IMG/VR virus record: IMGVR_UViG_2568526312_000015
DNA length: 54,892 bases
From: a virus
Lineage: Duplodnaviria; Heunggongvirae; Uroviricota; Caudoviricetes
Reading direction: 5' to 3' (one strand)
Made by a program: the position numbers and the translations under genes. How positions within the stretch are numbered: position 1 is the stretch's first letter; every line of letters begins with the position of its first letter. Of the stretch, positions 42,328 through 53,992 are shown piece by piece. A model generated the notes under the pieces. The model made no database searches, was not told the origin of the DNA, and saw nothing but the letters and a program-made list of their open reading frames with translations.

Positions 42328-42744
42328 GTGTCTCAACCACTTTCGGAAATATTGACATGGGATGATGAACAATGGGAGGTATTTGTCCATGATTGGCTTA
42401 TTGTCTGTAAATCAGATGATTACCCGTGGAGCGAACGTTTGGGAGGAGCTGGAGATAAAGGTAGAGACGTTGTTGGATATAAATCGGATCCTAACGTAGA
42501 AGGTTATTCTTGGGATAATTATCAATGCAAACTGTACAAAAAAAGTTTAGGGTTCTCTGATGTTGTAGTTGAGTTTGGAAAACTTATCTATTTTACTCTG
42601 AATGGTGATTATCCCATCCCTCAGAAGTACTTTTTTGTGGCACCCTATGATTTATCTACTACATTTTCTAATTTATTGAAAAATAAAAACGAGCTTAAAA
42701 AAGCAGTCCTTGATTCATGGGATTCAGCAATTTCAAAAAAATAA
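42328..42744 (+). CDS. Mrr-type PD-(D/E)xK nuclease-domain protein (N-terminal part of the candidate effector)
   Basis: GTG start 4 nt after the int stop with an AAAGGAG RBS; motifs GGAGDKGRDVVGY and YQCKLYKK fit the Mrr-catalytic-type GDxGxD...QxK pattern; ends in an A7 run. Confidence 0.6.
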   Translation: MSQPLSEILTWDDEQWEVFVHDWLIVCKSDDYPWSERLGGAGDKGRDVVGYKSDPNVEGYSWDNYQCKLYKKSLGFSDVVVEFGKLIYFTLNGDYPIPQKYFFVAPYDLSTTFSNLLKNKNELKKAVLDSWDSAISKK

Positions 42745-43334
42745 CTAAAAAGATTGATATTCCATTAGATGATGAAATAAAAAAATATATTGAGGATTTT
42801 GATTTTAGTATTTTTTACTCTCTACCCTTATCATTGATTTTAAATGATATTGCAAATACACACCTTTATTTTAAGTACTTTAACGAGCTGTATGTCGTGA
42901 GAATCCCTCCAAATGAAATTCCAACATACAATTCAAAAAAAGAGTCTGTATATGTTAATGCACTGCTTCAAGCCTATTCAGAGCATGGAAATAAAACTTA
43001 TAGTTCTTTCTTAGAGCTTGATGATCCATACAGACGACACTTTAATAATAGTAGAAATGATTTTTATTTTGCATCTTCGCTTGAGGTTTTTGTCCGCGAA
43101 GTATTTAAAGATGATGTATTCAAAGCATTGAAATGTTACATTTCATCTTCAATTGAACCCGTCTTTTATGAAGACCATAATTATGCATTTATTAGGTGTA
43201 ATGCAGTCTTGAAGCAGGCTGTTCTGACACCAATTGCACATTCAGTACTATCAAAAATATGTGAAGCAAATGATAAAAAAGGAATATGCCATCATTTGGT
43301 TAATGATGGTGAAGTAATTTGGACGGTGAGATAA
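42717..43334 (+). CDS. Hypothetical protein; probable C-terminal continuation of the nuclease-domain protein (reached by a -1 shift in the A7 run)
   Basis: Overlaps the upstream ORF by 28 nt in the -1 frame; A_AAA_AAA heptamer at 42735..42741; AT-rich. Confidence 0.5.
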   Translation: MGFSNFKKITKKIDIPLDDEIKKYIEDFDFSIFYSLPLSLILNDIANTHLYFKYFNELYVVRIPPNEIPTYNSKKESVYVNALLQAYSEHGNKTYSSFLELDDPYRRHFNNSRNDFYFASSLEVFVREVFKDDVFKALKCYISSSIEPVFYEDHNYAFIRCNAVLKQAVLTPIAHSVLSKICEANDKKGICHHLVNDGEVIWTVR

Positions 43335-43792
43335 TGGTTAGAATTTATAATTCAAGTTTAGAAGTGGCATGTCGAATGGCGAAAGTGCTCGTCGCTATTT
43401 ATCCTTCTTCATTAAGCCTTGAACGGCTTATTTGTTTTGATTTTATTTTAGTAAATCTTAAGGATTTTTTACCTGAAGAGATTAGTCTTCATCCTCCAAT
43501 ACCCCGTAGAGATGCTCAGTTAGCCCTAAAACGAGAGATTGTTTTAGAATCATTGGCTTTGTTGCAAGGCTATGAACTAGCCTCAAAAATTTATACACAT
43601 CGTGGTTTTGTATATAAAGCTTCTGAAAAAACATATGCATTTACAAATTCTCTACATAATGAATATGTTGCGCAGATGGAGCATAATATAAATTTGGTGG
43701 TTAAGTTATATAGTGATATTCCTGATGAGCAGTTGCAATCAATTATAAAAAATAAAATTGGCAAATATGATATGGAATTTAATTATGAATGA
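43334..43792 (+). CDS. Hypothetical small protein (middle component of the candidate system)
   Basis: 152-aa ORF; ATG overlaps the upstream stop (TAATG) and its own stop overlaps the next start (ATGAATGA). Confidence 0.5.
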   Translation: MVRIYNSSLEVACRMAKVLVAIYPSSLSLERLICFDFILVNLKDFLPEEISLHPPIPRRDAQLALKREIVLESLALLQGYELASKIYTHRGFVYKASEKTYAFTNSLHNEYVAQMEHNINLVVKLYSDIPDEQLQSIIKNKIGKYDMEFNYE

Positions 43793-44417
43793 CAATTTTT
43801 TTACGTTCAGAAAAATAAAGGTAACCGGATTCAATAAATTAGATGCTATAATTGAATTTGGTTCTAAATTGACTATTTTATATGGTGGTTCTGACTCTGG
43901 AAAAACATACATATATTATTTGATTCGATATTTATTAGGGAGTGAAAAACTAAAAAATAAAGATATCGATCATGCTCAAGGTTATGATTTAGCCTATCTG
44001 GAATTTAATTTTCAAGGTAGGGTAATGACAATTGAGAGGTCTCTTCAGGATAGCGCCCATTACAGATTATATGATTCGAGCATTGAAAATGTTAGTGAAG
44101 CTAATCTGTTGATGGTTTTTTCCAAAAGTGCTTCGTCTAAAAAGAGTTTTTCATCATACTTTTATGGTAGGTTGAATTTCAAAGAGGCTAAAGTAAGAAC
44201 AAACTTAAGTAATACTCTTCATAAATTTAATCTTAATAATGTTTTTGAATTTTTTTGTATTGATGAATTAAGAGTGTTAACTGAGAAGTCGTTAATTCTT
44301 TCTGATATTCCTAGCGAGGAGACAAAAAGAAAGTCTGAATTTAAATTCCTTTTAACTCAGAGAGATGATACTAACTCCTTAGCAGAAAAACCAAATAAAA
44401 AAGCAAGATATTTTTAA
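43785..44417 (+). CDS. SMC/ABC-type ATPase, N-terminal head (Walker A)
   Basis: FTFRKIKVTGFNKLDAIIEFGSKLTILYGGSDSGKTYIYYL: SMC/RecF-like N-terminus with P-loop GGSDSGKT; ends at an in-frame TAA. Confidence 0.6.
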   Translation: MNDNFFTFRKIKVTGFNKLDAIIEFGSKLTILYGGSDSGKTYIYYLIRYLLGSEKLKNKDIDHAQGYDLAYLEFNFQGRVMTIERSLQDSAHYRLYDSSIENVSEANLLMVFSKSASSKKSFSSYFYGRLNFKEAKVRTNLSNTLHKFNLNNVFEFFCIDELRVLTEKSLILSDIPSEETKRKSEFKFLLTQRDDTNSLAEKPNKKARYF

Positions 44418-45038
44418 AAAAATCAAATTGCAAATATTTATGAGGAATTGAAAGCGCAATTAATTTATCCTGAATATGATCAAGTCATTGTTTCAAGAGA
44501 ACTTGAGAAAGTAGAGCAAGATATTGAATCATCGAAAGATATATTGAAAGGTATTGTTGATGCACTTGATGATAAGAAGCAATTATTAAAAGAGTTAAGT
44601 GATGAATTATATTCAATCAGTGACAGGGAAAAATACTTATCATTACTCATTGAAAGATTTAGTCTTCTTAAAGACCAATACTTTATAGATCTACAAAGAA
44701 TAGATGTTGTATCACAGGCGAATTTCTATTTAAATAATTTTGCAGATATTTATTGTGAGTTCTGTAATACACCGCAAAAAAAAGAAAATGAAATATCATA
44801 TGATGATTGTTTTTTGTCGTGTAATGCAGAAAAATTGAAAATCAAAAGCCAGCTGAAAGGATTAATTGAATCAATCGGATCTAATGTTCGCGAACATGAA
44901 TTAATTATGTTAAGAAAAAATGATGTTAATGAAATTTATCAATCAGAAAAAAGTGATTTTAAGACGTTAGAAGATAAAAATATAAAACAATACATTCATC
45001 TCTTGAATCACTTTATGAATATAAAGACAATCTTTTAA
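44418..45038 (+). pseudogene. Coiled-coil middle segment of the same SMC/ABC-type ATPase (separated only by an in-frame TAA; no ATG start)
   Basis: Same frame as 43785..44417; reading frame open immediately after the TAA at 44415..44417; helical heptad-rich sequence. Confidence 0.5.
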
Positions 45039-45604
45039 TGGATCACACAAAACATAGCATTCTATCTTCATTACAAGATAAAGAAGATGATGTTGACGAA
45101 CTTAAATACTCCGCCGAGGACTTTGACTCCTTAACAGTAGCTGATTTGTATGATATAGAAATAGCGATGCAAGACTTTTTGAATGATATAAATTTTGAAA
45201 ATTCTAAAGATAACAAAGTGCGATTTGACGAAGATACATATGACTTTAATATCAATGGGAAACGCCGAGGAATGTTTGGTAAAGGTACCCGTGCAGTAAT
45301 GCATGCTATATTTACCATTTGCTTTGCGGAATTTTTATCAAGAAAAGGGAATCCATTCATTGGATTTGTTGTGCTTGATAGTCCATTAGTGACGCACTTT
45401 GATAAAGATAGAGGGGGTTCTCTATCGGATGTTAATAGCGTCAGTCTCAGTGATTCATTTTATCACGCATTAATCAAAAGGGACTATAATTTCCAGATTG
45501 TAATTCTTGAGAATAAAGGTCCGACGTTCCAAATAAAAATTAATGATGCAAATAAAATCCATAACTTAAATAAGAATGGAAGCTCTGGTTTTTATCCTGT
45601 TTAA
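45038..45604 (+). CDS. SMC/ABC-type ATPase, C-terminal head (signature-like and Walker B)
   Basis: GKGTRAVMHAIFTI (signature-motif-like) then FIGFVVLDSPL (Walker B) about 25 aa later; TAATG overlap with the preceding segment. Confidence 0.55.
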   Translation: MDHTKHSILSSLQDKEDDVDELKYSAEDFDSLTVADLYDIEIAMQDFLNDINFENSKDNKVRFDEDTYDFNINGKRRGMFGKGTRAVMHAIFTICFAEFLSRKGNPFIGFVVLDSPLVTHFDKDRGGSLSDVNSVSLSDSFYHALIKRDYNFQIVILENKGPTFQIKINDANKIHNLNKNGSSGFYPV

Positions 45605-49558: not shown

Positions 49559-49881
49559 TGATATGCTGTGAATCTCTTCTGGCACTTCGTGCCGCTCTGT
49601 ATCGCCGTGCCGTTGCCTGTGCCTGGCTGGCTCTAAGCAATCATCAGGAACGTTATTCCGGCCTGACGCTCGCTGAACTTGAAGATGCCATAGCCCGCGA
49701 GCTGGAAGGGTTCTATCTGCGCCAGCATGGGCAGCAAAGAGGGCTGGAAATTGCCTGCGCGTTGCTTTCGGATCTGATGGAGTCGGGGCCGCTTAAAGCC
49801 TGTCCGGTTCTCTCACTGCTCGGAATGACGGTCATGGATGAACTTTGTTCCCGTCACCTCAACAAACCAGCGCTGCACTAA
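49558..49881 (+). CDS. Hypothetical P4-like protein
   Basis: 107-aa ORF immediately upstream of the primase. Confidence 0.4.
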
Positions 49882-49894
49882 GGAGGGCCGCACA

Positions 49895-52228
49895 ATGTCA
49901 GGAATGAAAGTTAGCCAGGCTGAGAAAGCAGCTCGGGGTCACTGGTCAAGAATTTTACCTGCGCTGGGCGTAAATGTACTGAAAAATCGGCACCAGCCCT
50001 GCCCGGTCTGTGCCGGGAAAGACCGCTTTCGATTTGATGACCAGGAAGGGCGGGGAACGTGGTTCTGTAACCAGTGCGGGGCAGGTGATGGCCTGGCGCT
50101 TGTAAGTAAAGTACTGGATGTAGGCATTAGTGAAGCGGCAGACAGAATAAACGGCATTATCGGAAACCTGCTGCCAGTATCTCAGGGAATGCTTGAATCT
50201 GGTTCTCCTGAAAAAGAGGACGGGAGAAAAGCTGCAGCAGTGCTGGCTGCCCGTTTGTTTGATAAGTCCCGCCAGACCACTGGCAATGCCTATCTGACGA
50301 GTAAAGGGTTTCCTGCACTGCCTTGCCGGGAATTAACCGCTATGCATAAAGTCGGTGGTGTGGCATTTCGCGCGGGAGATCTTGTCGTTCCATTGTATGC
50401 AGATGGAGAGCTGGTAAATCTGCAGTTAATCAACGCTAATGGGGGCAAATGCTTCCTTAAAGGCGGTCAGGTTAAGAATGCCTTTTACCTGGTTGAAGGT
50501 ACTGCCAAAGCAGCCAAACGGCTCTGGATAGCGGAAGGATATGCCACCGCACTTACTATCAACTATCTGACTGGCGATGCTGTCATGGTGGCCTTTTCGT
50601 CCGTCAATTTCCTTTCCCTGGCGAGCATTGCCTGCAGTGAGTACCCAACGCACCAGATAATTATTGCTGCTGACCGCGATCTCAACGGTGCGGGGCAAAC
50701 AAGGGGCGCAGCTGTTACCGGGGCCTGCAATTGCACAATGGCGCTCCCGCCTGTGTTTGGTGACTGGAACGATGCATTCACGCAAAACGGCGAAGAAGCC
50801 ACCCGGCATGCAATTCATGAAGTAATAAAACCAGCTGTTGCCAGCCCCTTCGACACAATGAGCGAAGCTGAATTTACCGCGCTGAGCGTCAGCGAAAAAG
50901 CGCAGAGGGTAGTGGATCACTATAAAAATTCACTGGCAGTAGACCCGAACGGGCAGCTCCTTTCACGCTATGAGGCGGGGGCCTGGAAAGTTATCTATTA
51001 CGCCGATTTTGCCCGTGATGTCGCTGCGCTGTTTCAGCGCCTCGACGCACCTTTTTCATCCGCGAAAATTGCGTCTCTCGTGGAAACCCTCAAACTGATC
51101 GTTCCGCAACAGCAGAATCCGGCGCGGCAACTTATCGGATTTCGCAACGGTGTGCTCGATACCCGGACAGGATTGTTCAGCCCGCACGATAAGAAGCACT
51201 GGTTACGTACGCTGTGCGAGGTGGATTACACGCAGCCCGTTGACGGTGAGTCACTGGAAACCCATGCCCCGGCATTCTGGCGCTGGCTGGATCGTGCCGC
51301 AGGTTTTAATCCTGAAAAACGGGACATTATTCTGGCTGCATTGTTTATGGTGCTGGCTAACCGTTATGACTGGCAGCTGTTTCTGGAGGTCACTGGCCCT
51401 GGCGGAAGTGGAAAGAGTATTCTTGCTGAAATAGCAACCATGCTGGCGGGTGAAGATAACGCGACCTCGGCAACCATTGAAATGCTTGAGTCGCCAAGAG
51501 AACGAGCTGCGTTAATAGGTTTTTCACTGATTCGACTTCCCGACCAGGAAAAGTGGAGCGGTGACGGGGCCGGACTAAAAGCCATCACTGGCGGCGATGC
51601 GGTATCCGTTGATCCCAAATATCAGAACGCCTATTCAACCCACATCCCGGCGGTCATCCTGGCTGTGAACAATAATCCGATGCGCTTCACTGATCGTAGT
51701 GGTGGAGTTTCACGCCGAAGGGTGATCCTGCATTTCCCCGACCAGATAGCCCCGGAGGAACGCGATACCCAGCTCAAAGAGAAAATTGCCAGTGAGCTAG
51801 CGGTGATTGTTCGCCAGCTTATGCAGCGTTTCAGCGACCCAATGAGTGCCAGGACATTGCTTCAGTCACAGCAGAACTCCGATGAAGCGCTCACCATCAA
51901 ACGTGATGCTGATTCAGCTTTTGATTTTTGCGGCTACCTTGAGGTCCTACCTGACACCACGGGCATGTTTATGGGGAACGCTAATATTGTTCCACGTCAG
52001 CCTCGAACTTACCTCTACCATGCCTATCTGGTCTACATGGAGGCTAACGGCTATAAAAATACGCTCAGTCTGACCATGTTTGGCAAGGGGCTACCGTTAA
52101 TGCTCAAGGAATATGGGCTGCAGTATGAGAAACGACGGACCAATCAAGGAATGCAGACTAATCTGGCCCTAAGAGAGGAAAGCAATGCTGACTGGTTGCC
52201 AAAATGCGATGAGTTTGCAGCGAAATAA
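49895..52228 (+). CDS. P4 alpha-type primase/helicase (zinc-binding primase, TOPRIM, P-loop NTPase)
   Basis: CPVCAGKDRFRFDDQEGRGTWFCNQCG zinc-binding motif; Walker A GPGGSGKS; AGGAGG RBS before the ATG. Confidence 0.85.
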   Translation: MSGMKVSQAEKAARGHWSRILPALGVNVLKNRHQPCPVCAGKDRFRFDDQEGRGTWFCNQCGAGDGLALVSKVLDVGISEAADRINGIIGNLLPVSQGMLESGSPEKEDGRKAAAVLAARLFDKSRQTTGNAYLTSKGFPALPCRELTAMHKVGGVAFRAGDLVVPLYADGELVNLQLINANGGKCFLKGGQVKNAFYLVEGTAKAAKRLWIAEGYATALTINYLTGDAVMVAFSSVNFLSLASIACSEYPTHQIIIAADRDLNGAGQTRGAAVTGACNCTMALPPVFGDWNDAFTQNGEEATRHAIHEVIKPAVASPFDTMSEAEFTALSVSEKAQRVVDHYKNSLAVDPNGQLLSRYEAGAWKVIYYADFARDVAALFQRLDAPFSSAKIASLVETLKLIVPQQQNPARQLIGFRNGVLDTRTGLFSPHDKKHWLRTLCEVDYTQPVDGESLETHAPAFWRWLDRAAGFNPEKRDIILAALFMVLANRYDWQLFLEVTGPGGSGKSILAEIATMLAGEDNATSATIEMLESPRERAALIGFSLIRLPDQEKWSGDGAGLKAITGGDAVSVDPKYQNAYSTHIPAVILAVNNNPMRFTDRSGGVSRRRVILHFPDQIAPEERDTQLKEKIASELAVIVRQLMQRFSDPMSARTLLQSQQNSDEALTIKRDADSAFDFCGYLEVLPDTTGMFMGNANIVPRQPRTYLYHAYLVYMEANGYKNTLSLTMFGKGLPLMLKEYGLQYEKRRTNQGMQTNLALREESNADWLPKCDEFAAK

Positions 52229-52360
52229 CTGACCTAAGACCGGCTGTGCCGGTCTTAAATCCGCTACAGGAAATTATCTCAAAATATATATCGATAAAAT
52301 TTAAAAGTTATATGCTAAGGCGTCAGCGGAAAATGCATCTAATTCATTGTTAGATGATGT

Positions 52361-53317
52361 TTATTTTTGAATTGATTTAAACATCCCATCGAGTTGTAAT
52401 TTATTTATGTCGGTTTTCTTTATGGCTTTAATTAAGTTTTCAATAACTTCCAAAGAAAAAATTACATCTTTCTTTTCAATTCTAACCCCCCCGTGGTGGC
52501 TGCAAGCATTAAGGATGTCCTTTGTAATTTCAACATCATTTTTCATTAATGGTTCATAGTCCAGAGCCTCAATAACAGAAACTAAACTACCTAGCATTTG
52601 CTCTTGGTATTGAACGTTGTTTAAATGCATTATACGAATATTAACAAGCATGAGAATATATTCTAAATATCTCCTGGCAGTATTTCCTTTCTCTTGTAAA
52701 GAATCACGATCATATTCCTCAATACTCATGACTTCATTATGTAAAGAGGCTATTTTGTGCTCTGCTAATGAAATATTTATCGCATCCATGAGGTTTCGTG
52801 AGAAGCCTGTAGATGTAACATGACCATTTGCGGGCCTTGTTAAAATACATGTAGTATAGCAATTTATATTTGGGGTCTGGATTGTCTCATTTACTCTTTT
52901 AACCGTTCTATAAACGTCTACCATATAAGAACCTGAGTTTTCAAATGAACATGAAGAGCATTTTGTATTATATATTCTATTTAGAGATAACTGATTGTGA
53001 TAGTATCCCTTTAAGAAAGCATATATAGTGTCATTAAACTCGACAAACACAACGGACTCAATATATATATGGAATTTATCATTGGGGTGCCACTCTAATT
53101 CAAGTCTTCTTGTAGAGTCATCAAAGGAAAAGTTTGAAATAAAATCCCAGTTACCTAAATCTATAAAATCAACGATATTTCTACCTGCACCATGGATATT
53201 TTTATTTATTAAAGTTGTGATTGAGTTTTTTATAATGTCCCAATCATGAATTTCATGATCGAATTTATTATTGATGGTTTCTTTTATTTGATTGGAAAAG
53301 TTTGAATAACTAGTCAC
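52361..53317 (-). CDS. Hypothetical protein (AT-rich orphan cargo gene)
   Basis: 318-aa ORF, very AT-rich, between the primase and the distal att remnant; no recognised motif. Confidence 0.5.
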   Translation of the reverse strand: MTSYSNFSNQIKETINNKFDHEIHDWDIIKNSITTLINKNIHGAGRNIVDFIDLGNWDFISNFSFDDSTRRLELEWHPNDKFHIYIESVVFVEFNDTIYAFLKGYYHNQLSLNRIYNTKCSSCSFENSGSYMVDVYRTVKRVNETIQTPNINCYTTCILTRPANGHVTSTGFSRNLMDAINISLAEHKIASLHNEVMSIEEYDRDSLQEKGNTARRYLEYILMLVNIRIMHLNNVQYQEQMLGSLVSVIEALDYEPLMKNDVEITKDILNACSHHGGVRIEKKDVIFSLEVIENLIKAIKKTDINKLQLDGMFKSIQK

Positions 53318-53847
53318 TTGTTAGCCTCAAAATTAATAATGAGTATTAAAATTTAATTGATATTGTCTATAAAATGTAGCGATGCAATTTTATTGCAACG
53401 AAATGATTTTTACAACATACCATTATCGCTAAACAAAATCGCACCCATCAAATCAACTTACGTTACAATCACTACAAAGCGATTGCATTTAAATTCAAAA
53501 CAGTTTTCTGTTGGGCGCATTTTTTGTTGTACTGGACTAAAGAGAAAAAATGGGGTAAGGAACAAATACCTTCCGTGCTCAAAAATTAGGTTTTTATGCA
53601 CTTATTAATCAGTCAAGGTGAACAGTAAAGTGTTCACTTCTTATCAATCGTTAATTTCATATCTTTTTGAATATTAATGAAAAAAAACACAATGAGTAGT
53701 ATGAACAGTTTTCCCCCAAAAAAAGTTTTTTCTGCCTTGAGAATGCGCGGAAAGCGAACGCCTTCACCAATGTGTATAGGGGTGTGTGTAGTTTAAATCT
53801 TCTATTTTAATTTATGTATTAAAATCATTGTGTTGGTGGCGATTATT

Positions 53848-53869
53848 GGTTCCTATTATCGCACCATTT
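53848..53869. repeat. Degenerate copy of the thrW 3' end (distal att of the P4-like island)
   Basis: GGTTCCTATTATCGCACCATTT against the tRNA 3' end GGTTCGACTCCTATTATCGGCACCA; downstream flank TAAATCAAGTAGTT resembles the flank after thrW (AAAATCAATAAGTT). Confidence 0.5.
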
Positions 53870-53992
53870 AAATCAAGTAGTTACCCCATATTTAAATACA
53901 CCACGTTTCCTCCTGTGCCGCATTTGTGCCATTGTAACCCTGGCAATTAATCAAAATACTGTTCTGACATCAGGCAATGCAGGTGCAGACAT

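Follow-up and report, generated by a model that had tools for sequence, protein, structure and literature searches.

The locus and its cargo gene

The stretch of DNA analyzed here—the 54,892 nucleotides of IMG/VR record IMGVR_UViG_2568526312_000015, hereafter the window—covers the proA–thrW region of Escherichia coli O157:H7 and carries the P4-like satellite Sp2/CP-933I, an element delimited by attachment (att) sites in which int, psu, delta, sid and alpha are annotated or were matched. Between alpha and att lies ECs0304, the subject of this study. RefSeq holds the identical 957-nt coding sequence (CDS) as WP_000205213.1, a "hypothetical protein", which in strain Sakai is ECs_0304 of prophage Sp2 (P4-like phage). 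In what follows we describe this gene as single-gene cargo of the minor primase–att slot of the satellite, and its product—with moderate confidence, and on the grounds of a predicted structure and of family conservation—as a putative abortive-infection protein that combines a sensor with a HEPN ribonuclease (RNase). The features are collected in Table 1.

Table 1. Features of the ECs0304 locus, in coordinates of the window (a dot marks a feature without strand).
Feature	Position	Strand	Basis or remark
P4 alpha-type primase–helicase, left side of the slot	49838..52228	+	ORF listing, annotation, matching
GC-rich hairpin where the primase and cargo genes converge	52231..52261	.	conserved backbone, terminator-like
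Inserted cargo cassette: ECs0304 with 297 bp upstream and ~100 bp downstream	52257..53614	.	blastn against the cargo-less LR-03 element
CDS of the 318-aa protein ECs0304 / WP_000205213.1, stop included	52361..53317	-	ORF listing, RefSeq, chance test, dN/dS
C-terminal HEPN-fold domain, residues 172–317	52367..52804	-	predicted structure
Codons N270-A-C-S273-H274, end of helix 3, position of the HEPN catalytic motif	52496..52510	-	conservation, model, literature
Codons R215-R216-Y-L-E219, helix 2, HEPN acidic site and proposed substitute Arg	52661..52675	-	conservation, literature
N-terminal domain, residues 1–168, two helices and a beta-rich fold	52814..53317	-	proposed sensor/ligand-binding
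Shine-Dalgarno GAGG, 7 nt 5' of GTG	53325..53328	-	sequence read
P4 backbone segment common to the cargo-less relative, with one TGTTCACC octamer plus a partial copy in inverted orientation	53615..53731	.	blastn
attR, ptwF-type copy of the thrW 3' end, right island boundary	53844..53934	+	phage att-core match, island-free E. coli genomes

ECs0304 is a real gene under purifying selection. Its open reading frame (ORF), listed with a GTG start, is open over 319 codons, whereas the longest frame among 2000 shuffles of the same 1.6-kb stretch reached 163; the analytic probability of such a frame arising by chance is ~5e-12, a stop being expected about every 13 codons at this AT content. At the same aligned position, homologues start with ATG. 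Against the Citrobacter copy, which is 80% identical, the ratio of nonsynonymous to synonymous substitution rates (dN/dS) is 0.061 with dS saturated, and hence selection on the protein is strong and purifying. The guanine–cytosine (GC) content of the ORF is 0.313, whereas the alpha primase has 0.523 and the LysR core gene 0.500; the flanks are AT-rich as well, with 0.364 at 52229–52360 and 0.31–0.33 at 53318–53843.

The slot itself becomes apparent by comparison with the P4-like element of strain LR-03 (L018), which carries no cargo after its primase. By blastn, window 52100–52256—the primase end and the hairpin—corresponds to L018 5759–5915, and window 53615–53731 corresponds to L018 5936–6052, just 20 bp further along L018. 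Since the two flanks sit this close together in the cargo-less element, the window bears an insert of ~1.36 kb (~52257–53614). The same slot is empty in LR-03, and in E. coli A27 it holds an AbiJ_NTD4 protein (Pfam E 5.8e-27) together with a hypothetical protein. According to the main texts of the respective reports, the main P4 defense hotspot is psu–int (PMC9122126), while the primase–att position is a minor one (PMC13586616); among the systems tested or named in these two main texts, none corresponds to the ECs0304 protein. The original prediction, drawn from the letters of this DNA alone, had placed a low-GC, 318-aa minus-strand ORF with AT-rich flanks between the alpha primase and an att remnant, as the occupant of a terminal cargo slot. 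Composition, placement and slot all stand, the last as an insert relative to a cargo-less relative, in a variably filled position that is a documented hotspot (PMC13586616).

In A27 the occupants lie at L016 6838–8283, where the AbiJ_NTD4 protein is followed by a 190-aa protein without a Pfam match; in E. coli MS 145-7 (L017 6007–7104) the slot is taken by a protein of 365 aa whose SIR2-like match stays below the threshold. By hhalign, the occupants in A27 and MS 145-7 are unrelated to the ECs0304 family.

A mobile family of single genes

A word-indexed search returned 36 relatives, every one annotated as "hypothetical", from Citrobacter, Providencia, Pantoea, Pectobacterium, Proteus, Aeromonas, Enterobacter, Serratia, Salmonella, Buttiauxella and Klebsiella. 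An exhaustive profile search, with clustering at 50%, yielded 153 family representatives, of which 103 had E < 1e-10. The family is very sparse: a pattern-based scan with one genome per species found a close relative in 1 of 185,579 species-representative genomes. Within complete E. coli genomes, ECs0304 is present in 306 of 5,426—in 305 of these at at least 99% identity—and the gene is intact across the O157:H7 lineage.

Enterobacterial members keep a GC content of 29–35% in hosts of 35–62%, even at a Serratia locus with 62% GC, and the DNA homology between the ECs0304 and Citrobacter contexts stops at the CDS ends. P4-like satellites carry the gene in the O157 lineage and in the viral contigs L031–L033 and L036, while most homologues lie outside such elements. 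A different E. coli island at proA–thrW bears a homologue directly downstream of a P4-family integrase (62% identical), and in L034 a homologue stands beside another integrase-like gene. The Citrobacter copy resides in a conjugative element, where an orphan N6/N4 methyltransferase and ArdC flank it and a type I restriction–modification system and an AAA_15 ATPase lie close by; one homologue adjoins a resolvase and a 1522-aa protein, and the most distant member adjoins an MmeI-type methyltransferase. The copies of Proteus, Serratia, Enterobacter and Aeromonas occupy small islets with core genes on either side. The independent contexts that were examined have no conserved neighboring gene in common, scanning the cassette with Rfam for an antitoxin RNA gave none, and no deposited phage carries ECs0304. 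The earlier suggestion of a laterally acquired, single-gene unit is thus borne out by the low GC content in richer hosts, the homology that ends with the CDS, the sparse occurrence and the absence of a conserved neighbor in the contexts examined.

Some members are longer than ECs0304. Some distant members, among them P0042, P0043, P0057, P0067, P0073 and P0082, have N-terminal extensions of ~160–200 aa, and six such extensions match DUF3775, an uncharacterized domain; others, such as P0072, P0097, P0114 and P0116, bear C-terminal extensions of ~270 aa without a Pfam match. The ECs0304 protein itself matches no Pfam, NCBIfam, PHROGs or PADLOC model, the family core is without a Pfam or PADLOC match in 117 diverse members, and profile searches against sequences of the PDB gave chance matches only. 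Judged from sequence, this is an undescribed family without a Pfam, PADLOC or NCBIfam model.

A second E. coli subfamily, 44% identical and represented by a cluster of 115 sequences, was seen in L019 (8715–16327; GCA_034532695.1). Its gene directly follows a P4-family integrase at the same proA–thrW site. The neighbors form an unannotated three-gene cluster of a 1091-aa Y4jQ-family protein and two proteins that match receiver domains, one of which also weakly matches an alpha/beta-hydrolase (lipase-like); this cluster may be another defense candidate.

Predicted structure and conserved residues

AlphaFold2 with the family alignment produced a confident model (pLDDT 87.7, pTM 0.83) of two domains. 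The N-terminal domain carries the near-invariant residues D50, D58 and W76 and the motif DFIDxGxWD. The C-terminal domain is modeled as a HEPN-type fold with active-site-like residues: helices H1 (172–198) and H2 (204–229) are followed by an insert (230–260), by H3 (261–273) and H4 (282–301) and by an extra helix (304–317). An insert between H2 and H3 is frequent in HEPN domains (PMC3710099). Among the best structural matches of the ECs0304 protein are the HEPN toxins 5yep, 7ae2 and 8xdj, whereas a viral structure library contained no shared fold (best template-modeling score ~0.26). Homology to housekeeping proteins or to structural proteins of phages, which would have spoken against the original prediction, was not found. 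Its statement that the protein bears no recognizable motif holds at the level of sequence libraries; predicted structure and family conservation nevertheless reveal a HEPN-type domain.

The residues in question were counted over 136 family members. R215 is found in all 136, E219 in 134 (the other two carry Asp), H274 in 134, N270 in 130 and S273 in 128, and no other residues of the protein are as conserved as these five. They fall where the HEPN literature would place them. In HEPN domains the His of the Rx4-6H motif lies where helix 3 ends or where the H3–H4 loop starts; the Arg of this motif is mostly followed by N, D or H, and a second acidic residue in helix 2—often as Ex3[KR]—lies close to the motif (Anantharaman et al., PMC3710099). 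The ECs0304 family has its His at the end of helix 3, with the spacing from N to H as in R-N-x-x-x-H, and a conserved acidic residue, E219, in helix 2. K223, present in 99/136, completes Ex3K, with Met at this position in the subfamily of the ECs0304 protein itself.

What departs from the canonical pattern is the motif Arg. Its position, 269, is held by Leu in 68 members, by Ala in 42 and otherwise by a different small residue, with no Arg in any; at position 267, only 22 of the 136 have an Arg. The HEPN families c2405 and Parep1/8 likewise keep the His without the Arg, and other conserved basic residues have been suggested to take over (PMC3710099). In the ECs0304 family we propose that the invariant R215—one helical turn before E219—is the candidate that replaces the missing motif Arg.

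Proposed mechanism

We infer an anti-phage phenotype, an RNase activity, the role of R215 and sensing by the N-terminal domain from the features above, and the following sequence of events is proposed. The ECs0304 protein would be made constitutively and held in an autoinhibited state. Upon infection, the beta-rich N-terminal domain would sense a phage-derived protein or small ligand, and binding of this trigger would activate the HEPN domains, presumably as a dimer. These would then cleave host RNA, with tRNA anticodon loops or mRNA as the likeliest targets. The reaction would need no metal ion and would use a noncanonical active site of H274, N270 and S273 where helix 3 ends, together with E219 in helix 2, with R215 standing in for the motif Arg. 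Translation would stop, and the infected cell would arrest or die before phage progeny are released, i.e., by abortive infection.

We consider this reading somewhat better than even. It draws on the active-site geometry, the position in a hotspot, the mobility combined with selection and the absence of a partner gene or RNA. The earlier guess of an abortive-infection function or a toxin would fit it, because the C-terminal domain is predicted as a HEPN fold with conserved active-site-like residues. A more specific claim can be put forward only tentatively, and we regard it as rather doubtful in its entirety: ECs0304 might define a new compact (~320 aa) family of single-protein anti-phage systems in which a hitherto undescribed beta-rich sensor gates a HEPN RNase, with the catalytic Arg moved from the Rx4-6H motif in helix 3 to helix 2 (R215), located in the little-studied primase–att hotspot and perhaps forming the sole intact defense cargo of Sp2/CP-933I.

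Several observations weigh against a sensor-gated HEPN RNase. With Arg absent at 269, the domain might lack catalytic activity or serve a purpose other than RNA cutting. The proximity of R215 to H274 was deduced from helix periodicity and the description in the literature. No profile match to a described HEPN family (CL0291) was obtained: models of the HEPN clan in Pfam matched neither the ECs0304 protein at E <= 10 nor the 117 diverse members at E <= 0.05, and for none of these members was there a HEPN match in Pfam, PADLOC or PDB sequences. Promoter candidates upstream of ECs0304 were no more numerous in a promoter scan than expected from shuffled DNA. The islets of Proteus, Serratia, Enterobacter and Aeromonas bear no recognizable defense neighbors, and in the library of papers searched, none mentions ECs0304 or WP_000205213.

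Alternative explanations

If the missing Arg is taken at face value, the fold might be HEPN-like and noncatalytic, its helical domain being a module for binding or regulation of the kind seen in MtlR or in the substrate-binding HEPN domains of nucleotidyltransferases; the protein would then have an accessory role, maybe a defensive one by binding or sequestering a phage component. We deem this unlikely. The strictly conserved R215, E219, N270, S273 and H274 are polar or charged and lie at catalytic positions, and the label "inactive" has been reserved for HEPN domains without any conserved polar residues (PMC3710099). The same work describes the active-looking families c2405 and Parep1/8, which have the His without the Arg, and a nucleotidyltransferase partner of ECs0304 occurs in no context.

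HEPN toxins are also common in toxin–antitoxin systems, the three toxins named above are among the best structural matches, and the family is found on satellites, on a conjugative element and in integrase-adjacent islands, with one copy pseudogenized. The protein might hence be an addiction toxin that stabilizes mobile elements by means of an unrecognized antitoxin or of self-inhibition, with no role against phages. This appears improbable to us, as neither a minimal nucleotidyltransferase (MNT) nor any other conserved adjacent gene, neither conserved flanking DNA nor an Rfam RNA accompanies the gene. Furthermore, for many copies, which reside in small islets of the chromosome, there is no element to stabilize. 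In Sakai, Sp2 shows no circularization, replication or packaging (PMC2669165), but the gene is intact at at least 99% identity in 305 genomes.

Less probable still is a function specific to the satellite, such as manipulation of the helper phage, an accessory role in replication near the P4 backbone segment or anti-defense. For this speak the primase and the conserved backbone segment with a P4-type octamer, which ECs0304 adjoins, and the Citrobacter copy beside the anti-restriction gene ardC and the orphan methyltransferase. Most homologues, however, lie outside P4-like elements, related satellites with other cargo or none show that the satellite can dispense with the gene, no viral protein in the structure library shares the fold, and no deposited phage carries the gene. 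That ECs0304 is a nonfunctional, decaying remnant or a chance ORF—as its "hypothetical protein" label, its GTG start and the one broken copy could insinuate—is refuted by the chance test, by dN/dS with saturated dS, by 153 family representatives with conserved motifs, by the confident fold prediction and by a Shine-Dalgarno sequence.

Backbone and boundaries of the island

The hairpin between the convergent genes is perfect, with a 10-bp stem (TAAGACCGGC aca GCCGGTCTTA), and could act as a transcription terminator for both directions. On the other side of the cassette, the backbone segment at 53615–53731 is 74% conserved with the DNA that directly follows the LR-03 primase terminator, and its inverted partial octamer copy reads GGTGAACAGTAAAGTGTTCAC. 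It may be a crr-like replication element. As a set of P4 crr/ori iterons the segment was rejected: it contains a single exact TGTTCACC, and the octamer count over the window is not above chance.

The right boundary is well defined, since 53851–53934 matches the attP/thrW–ptwF core of thrW-integrating phages and homology to island-free E. coli genomes resumes at 53844–53851. A weak att-like copy of 19 nt, ATCGCACCCATCAAATCAA, was noticed at 53438–53456, ~120 bp upstream of the ECs0304 start and 84% identical to the att core copy at 53858–53876. As a second attR and boundary it was discarded, being a weak partial copy, with E. coli core homology resuming first at 53844; it may stem from an earlier junction or match by chance.

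The element in O157 strains

The psu–int hotspot of the window (42328–45604) encodes proteins of an ABC-three-component system followed by three short ORFs (43758–45604). In the RefSeq annotation of Sakai these three ORFs are one AAA-family ATPase pseudogene, ECs_0293, and Rousset et al. (2022) found no anti-phage activity for a system synthesized from O157:H7 FRIK944. The main psu–int cargo may thus be dead, leaving ECs0304 as the only intact candidate; because the main system appears pseudogenized, ECs0304 is possibly the only intact defense cargo of Sp2/CP-933I.

A broken copy of the same allele was observed in L036 (905–1790; IMGVR_UViG_2923272612_000005), where it is disrupted by several indels, one of which turns LQEKGNTARRYLEY into LQEKILPPRYLEY and destroys the GNTAR motif. 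The primase beside the broken gene, 796 aa long, is intact with 99.7% identity, and the element gave no psu, sid or delta match. A broken copy beside an intact primase is what one would expect of a costly gene.

O157 strains differ widely in the element that separates thrW from the P4-like island (window 1459–~40500; L001 2339–4532; L025 1–4628). This element is a prophage of ~40 kb with a full tail module in the window and a 10.6-kb remnant (Sp1) in Sakai, and in PV15-279 it is an IS1203-truncated remnant, with the P4-like integrase also removed.

Implications

A HEPN candidate in a defense hotspot is by itself unsurprising. If the proposed function is true, however, an unannotated gene that is present in essentially the whole O157:H7 lineage, Sakai included, would be a working anti-phage system—which would bear on the use of phages in detecting this pathogen or in its biocontrol. 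It would also add to the single-protein tRNase and RNase defenses a small two-domain HEPN effector with a noncanonical active site and a new sensor fold. Since no Pfam, PADLOC or NCBIfam model exists for the family, current defense-annotation pipelines miss it. For the minor primase–att hotspot of P4-like satellites, ECs0304 would provide a concrete and easily cloned test case.

Comparison with known systems

With the cargo of P4-satellite hotspots, ECs0304 shares the primase–att position, the AT-richness, the variability between related satellites and the exchange with other mobile elements. Because it has neither a conserved neighbor nor an RNA partner, it matches the single-protein HEPN defenses HepS, ApeA and DARNA. 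HepT is defined by an adjacent MNT, which ECs0304 is without in every context examined; the RX4HXY motif is likewise missing, and an extra N-terminal domain is present.

HepS, the prophage-encoded "HEPN Solo" abortive-infection protein of Salmonella Gifsy-1, is a constitutively made HEPN anticodon nuclease that a phage tail-tip protein switches on and whose homologues lack conserved neighbors (PMC13043305). ECs0304 resembles it in being borne on a mobile element and without a partner. HepS is a standalone HEPN domain of <250 aa with the canonical R100-x4-H105 (RX4-6H), whereas ECs0304 bears an additional N-terminal domain of 170 aa and no motif Arg. DARNA (PD-T7-3) is a tRNA-cleaving abortive-infection protein (bioRxiv 10.64898/2026.02.22.705581) and, like ECs0304, a single protein of two domains, HEPN and sensor. 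The domain order is reversed: DARNA has an N-terminal HEPN domain (R117x4H122) and a C-terminal helical Pds5-like sensor of single-stranded DNA, in a 456-aa protein that forms a dodecamer. Neither this architecture nor a sequence or PADLOC match to DARNA was found for ECs0304.

The families c2405 and Parep1/8 share with ECs0304 the His at the motif position, the absence of the Arg and the proposal that other basic residues substitute for it. Compared by description only, c2405 is fused to an N-terminal Abi-type domain (AbiTii), whereas the N-terminal domain of ECs0304 is modeled as beta-rich.

ApeA, a system of Gao et al., acts by ligand-triggered cleavage of tRNA anticodons and abortive infection (bioRxiv 10.64898/2026.01.26.701840). 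It is a protein of ~583 aa with all-helical N-terminal and Mid domains, a split HEPN domain and doughnut-shaped oligomers; ECs0304 has 318 aa and a beta-rich N-terminal domain. PADLOC includes ApeA models, and it returned no match to the ECs0304 protein and only scattered, chance-level matches among 117 members (E >= 0.0025, none of them to ApeA); the N–Mid–HEPN_ApeA arrangement of ~580 aa is absent as well. ECs0304 is hence not a member of the ApeA, HepS or DARNA families but similar to them in logic, and the closest in architectural logic is ApeA—a single protein in which an N-terminal region without detectable homology precedes a diverged C-terminal HEPN domain.
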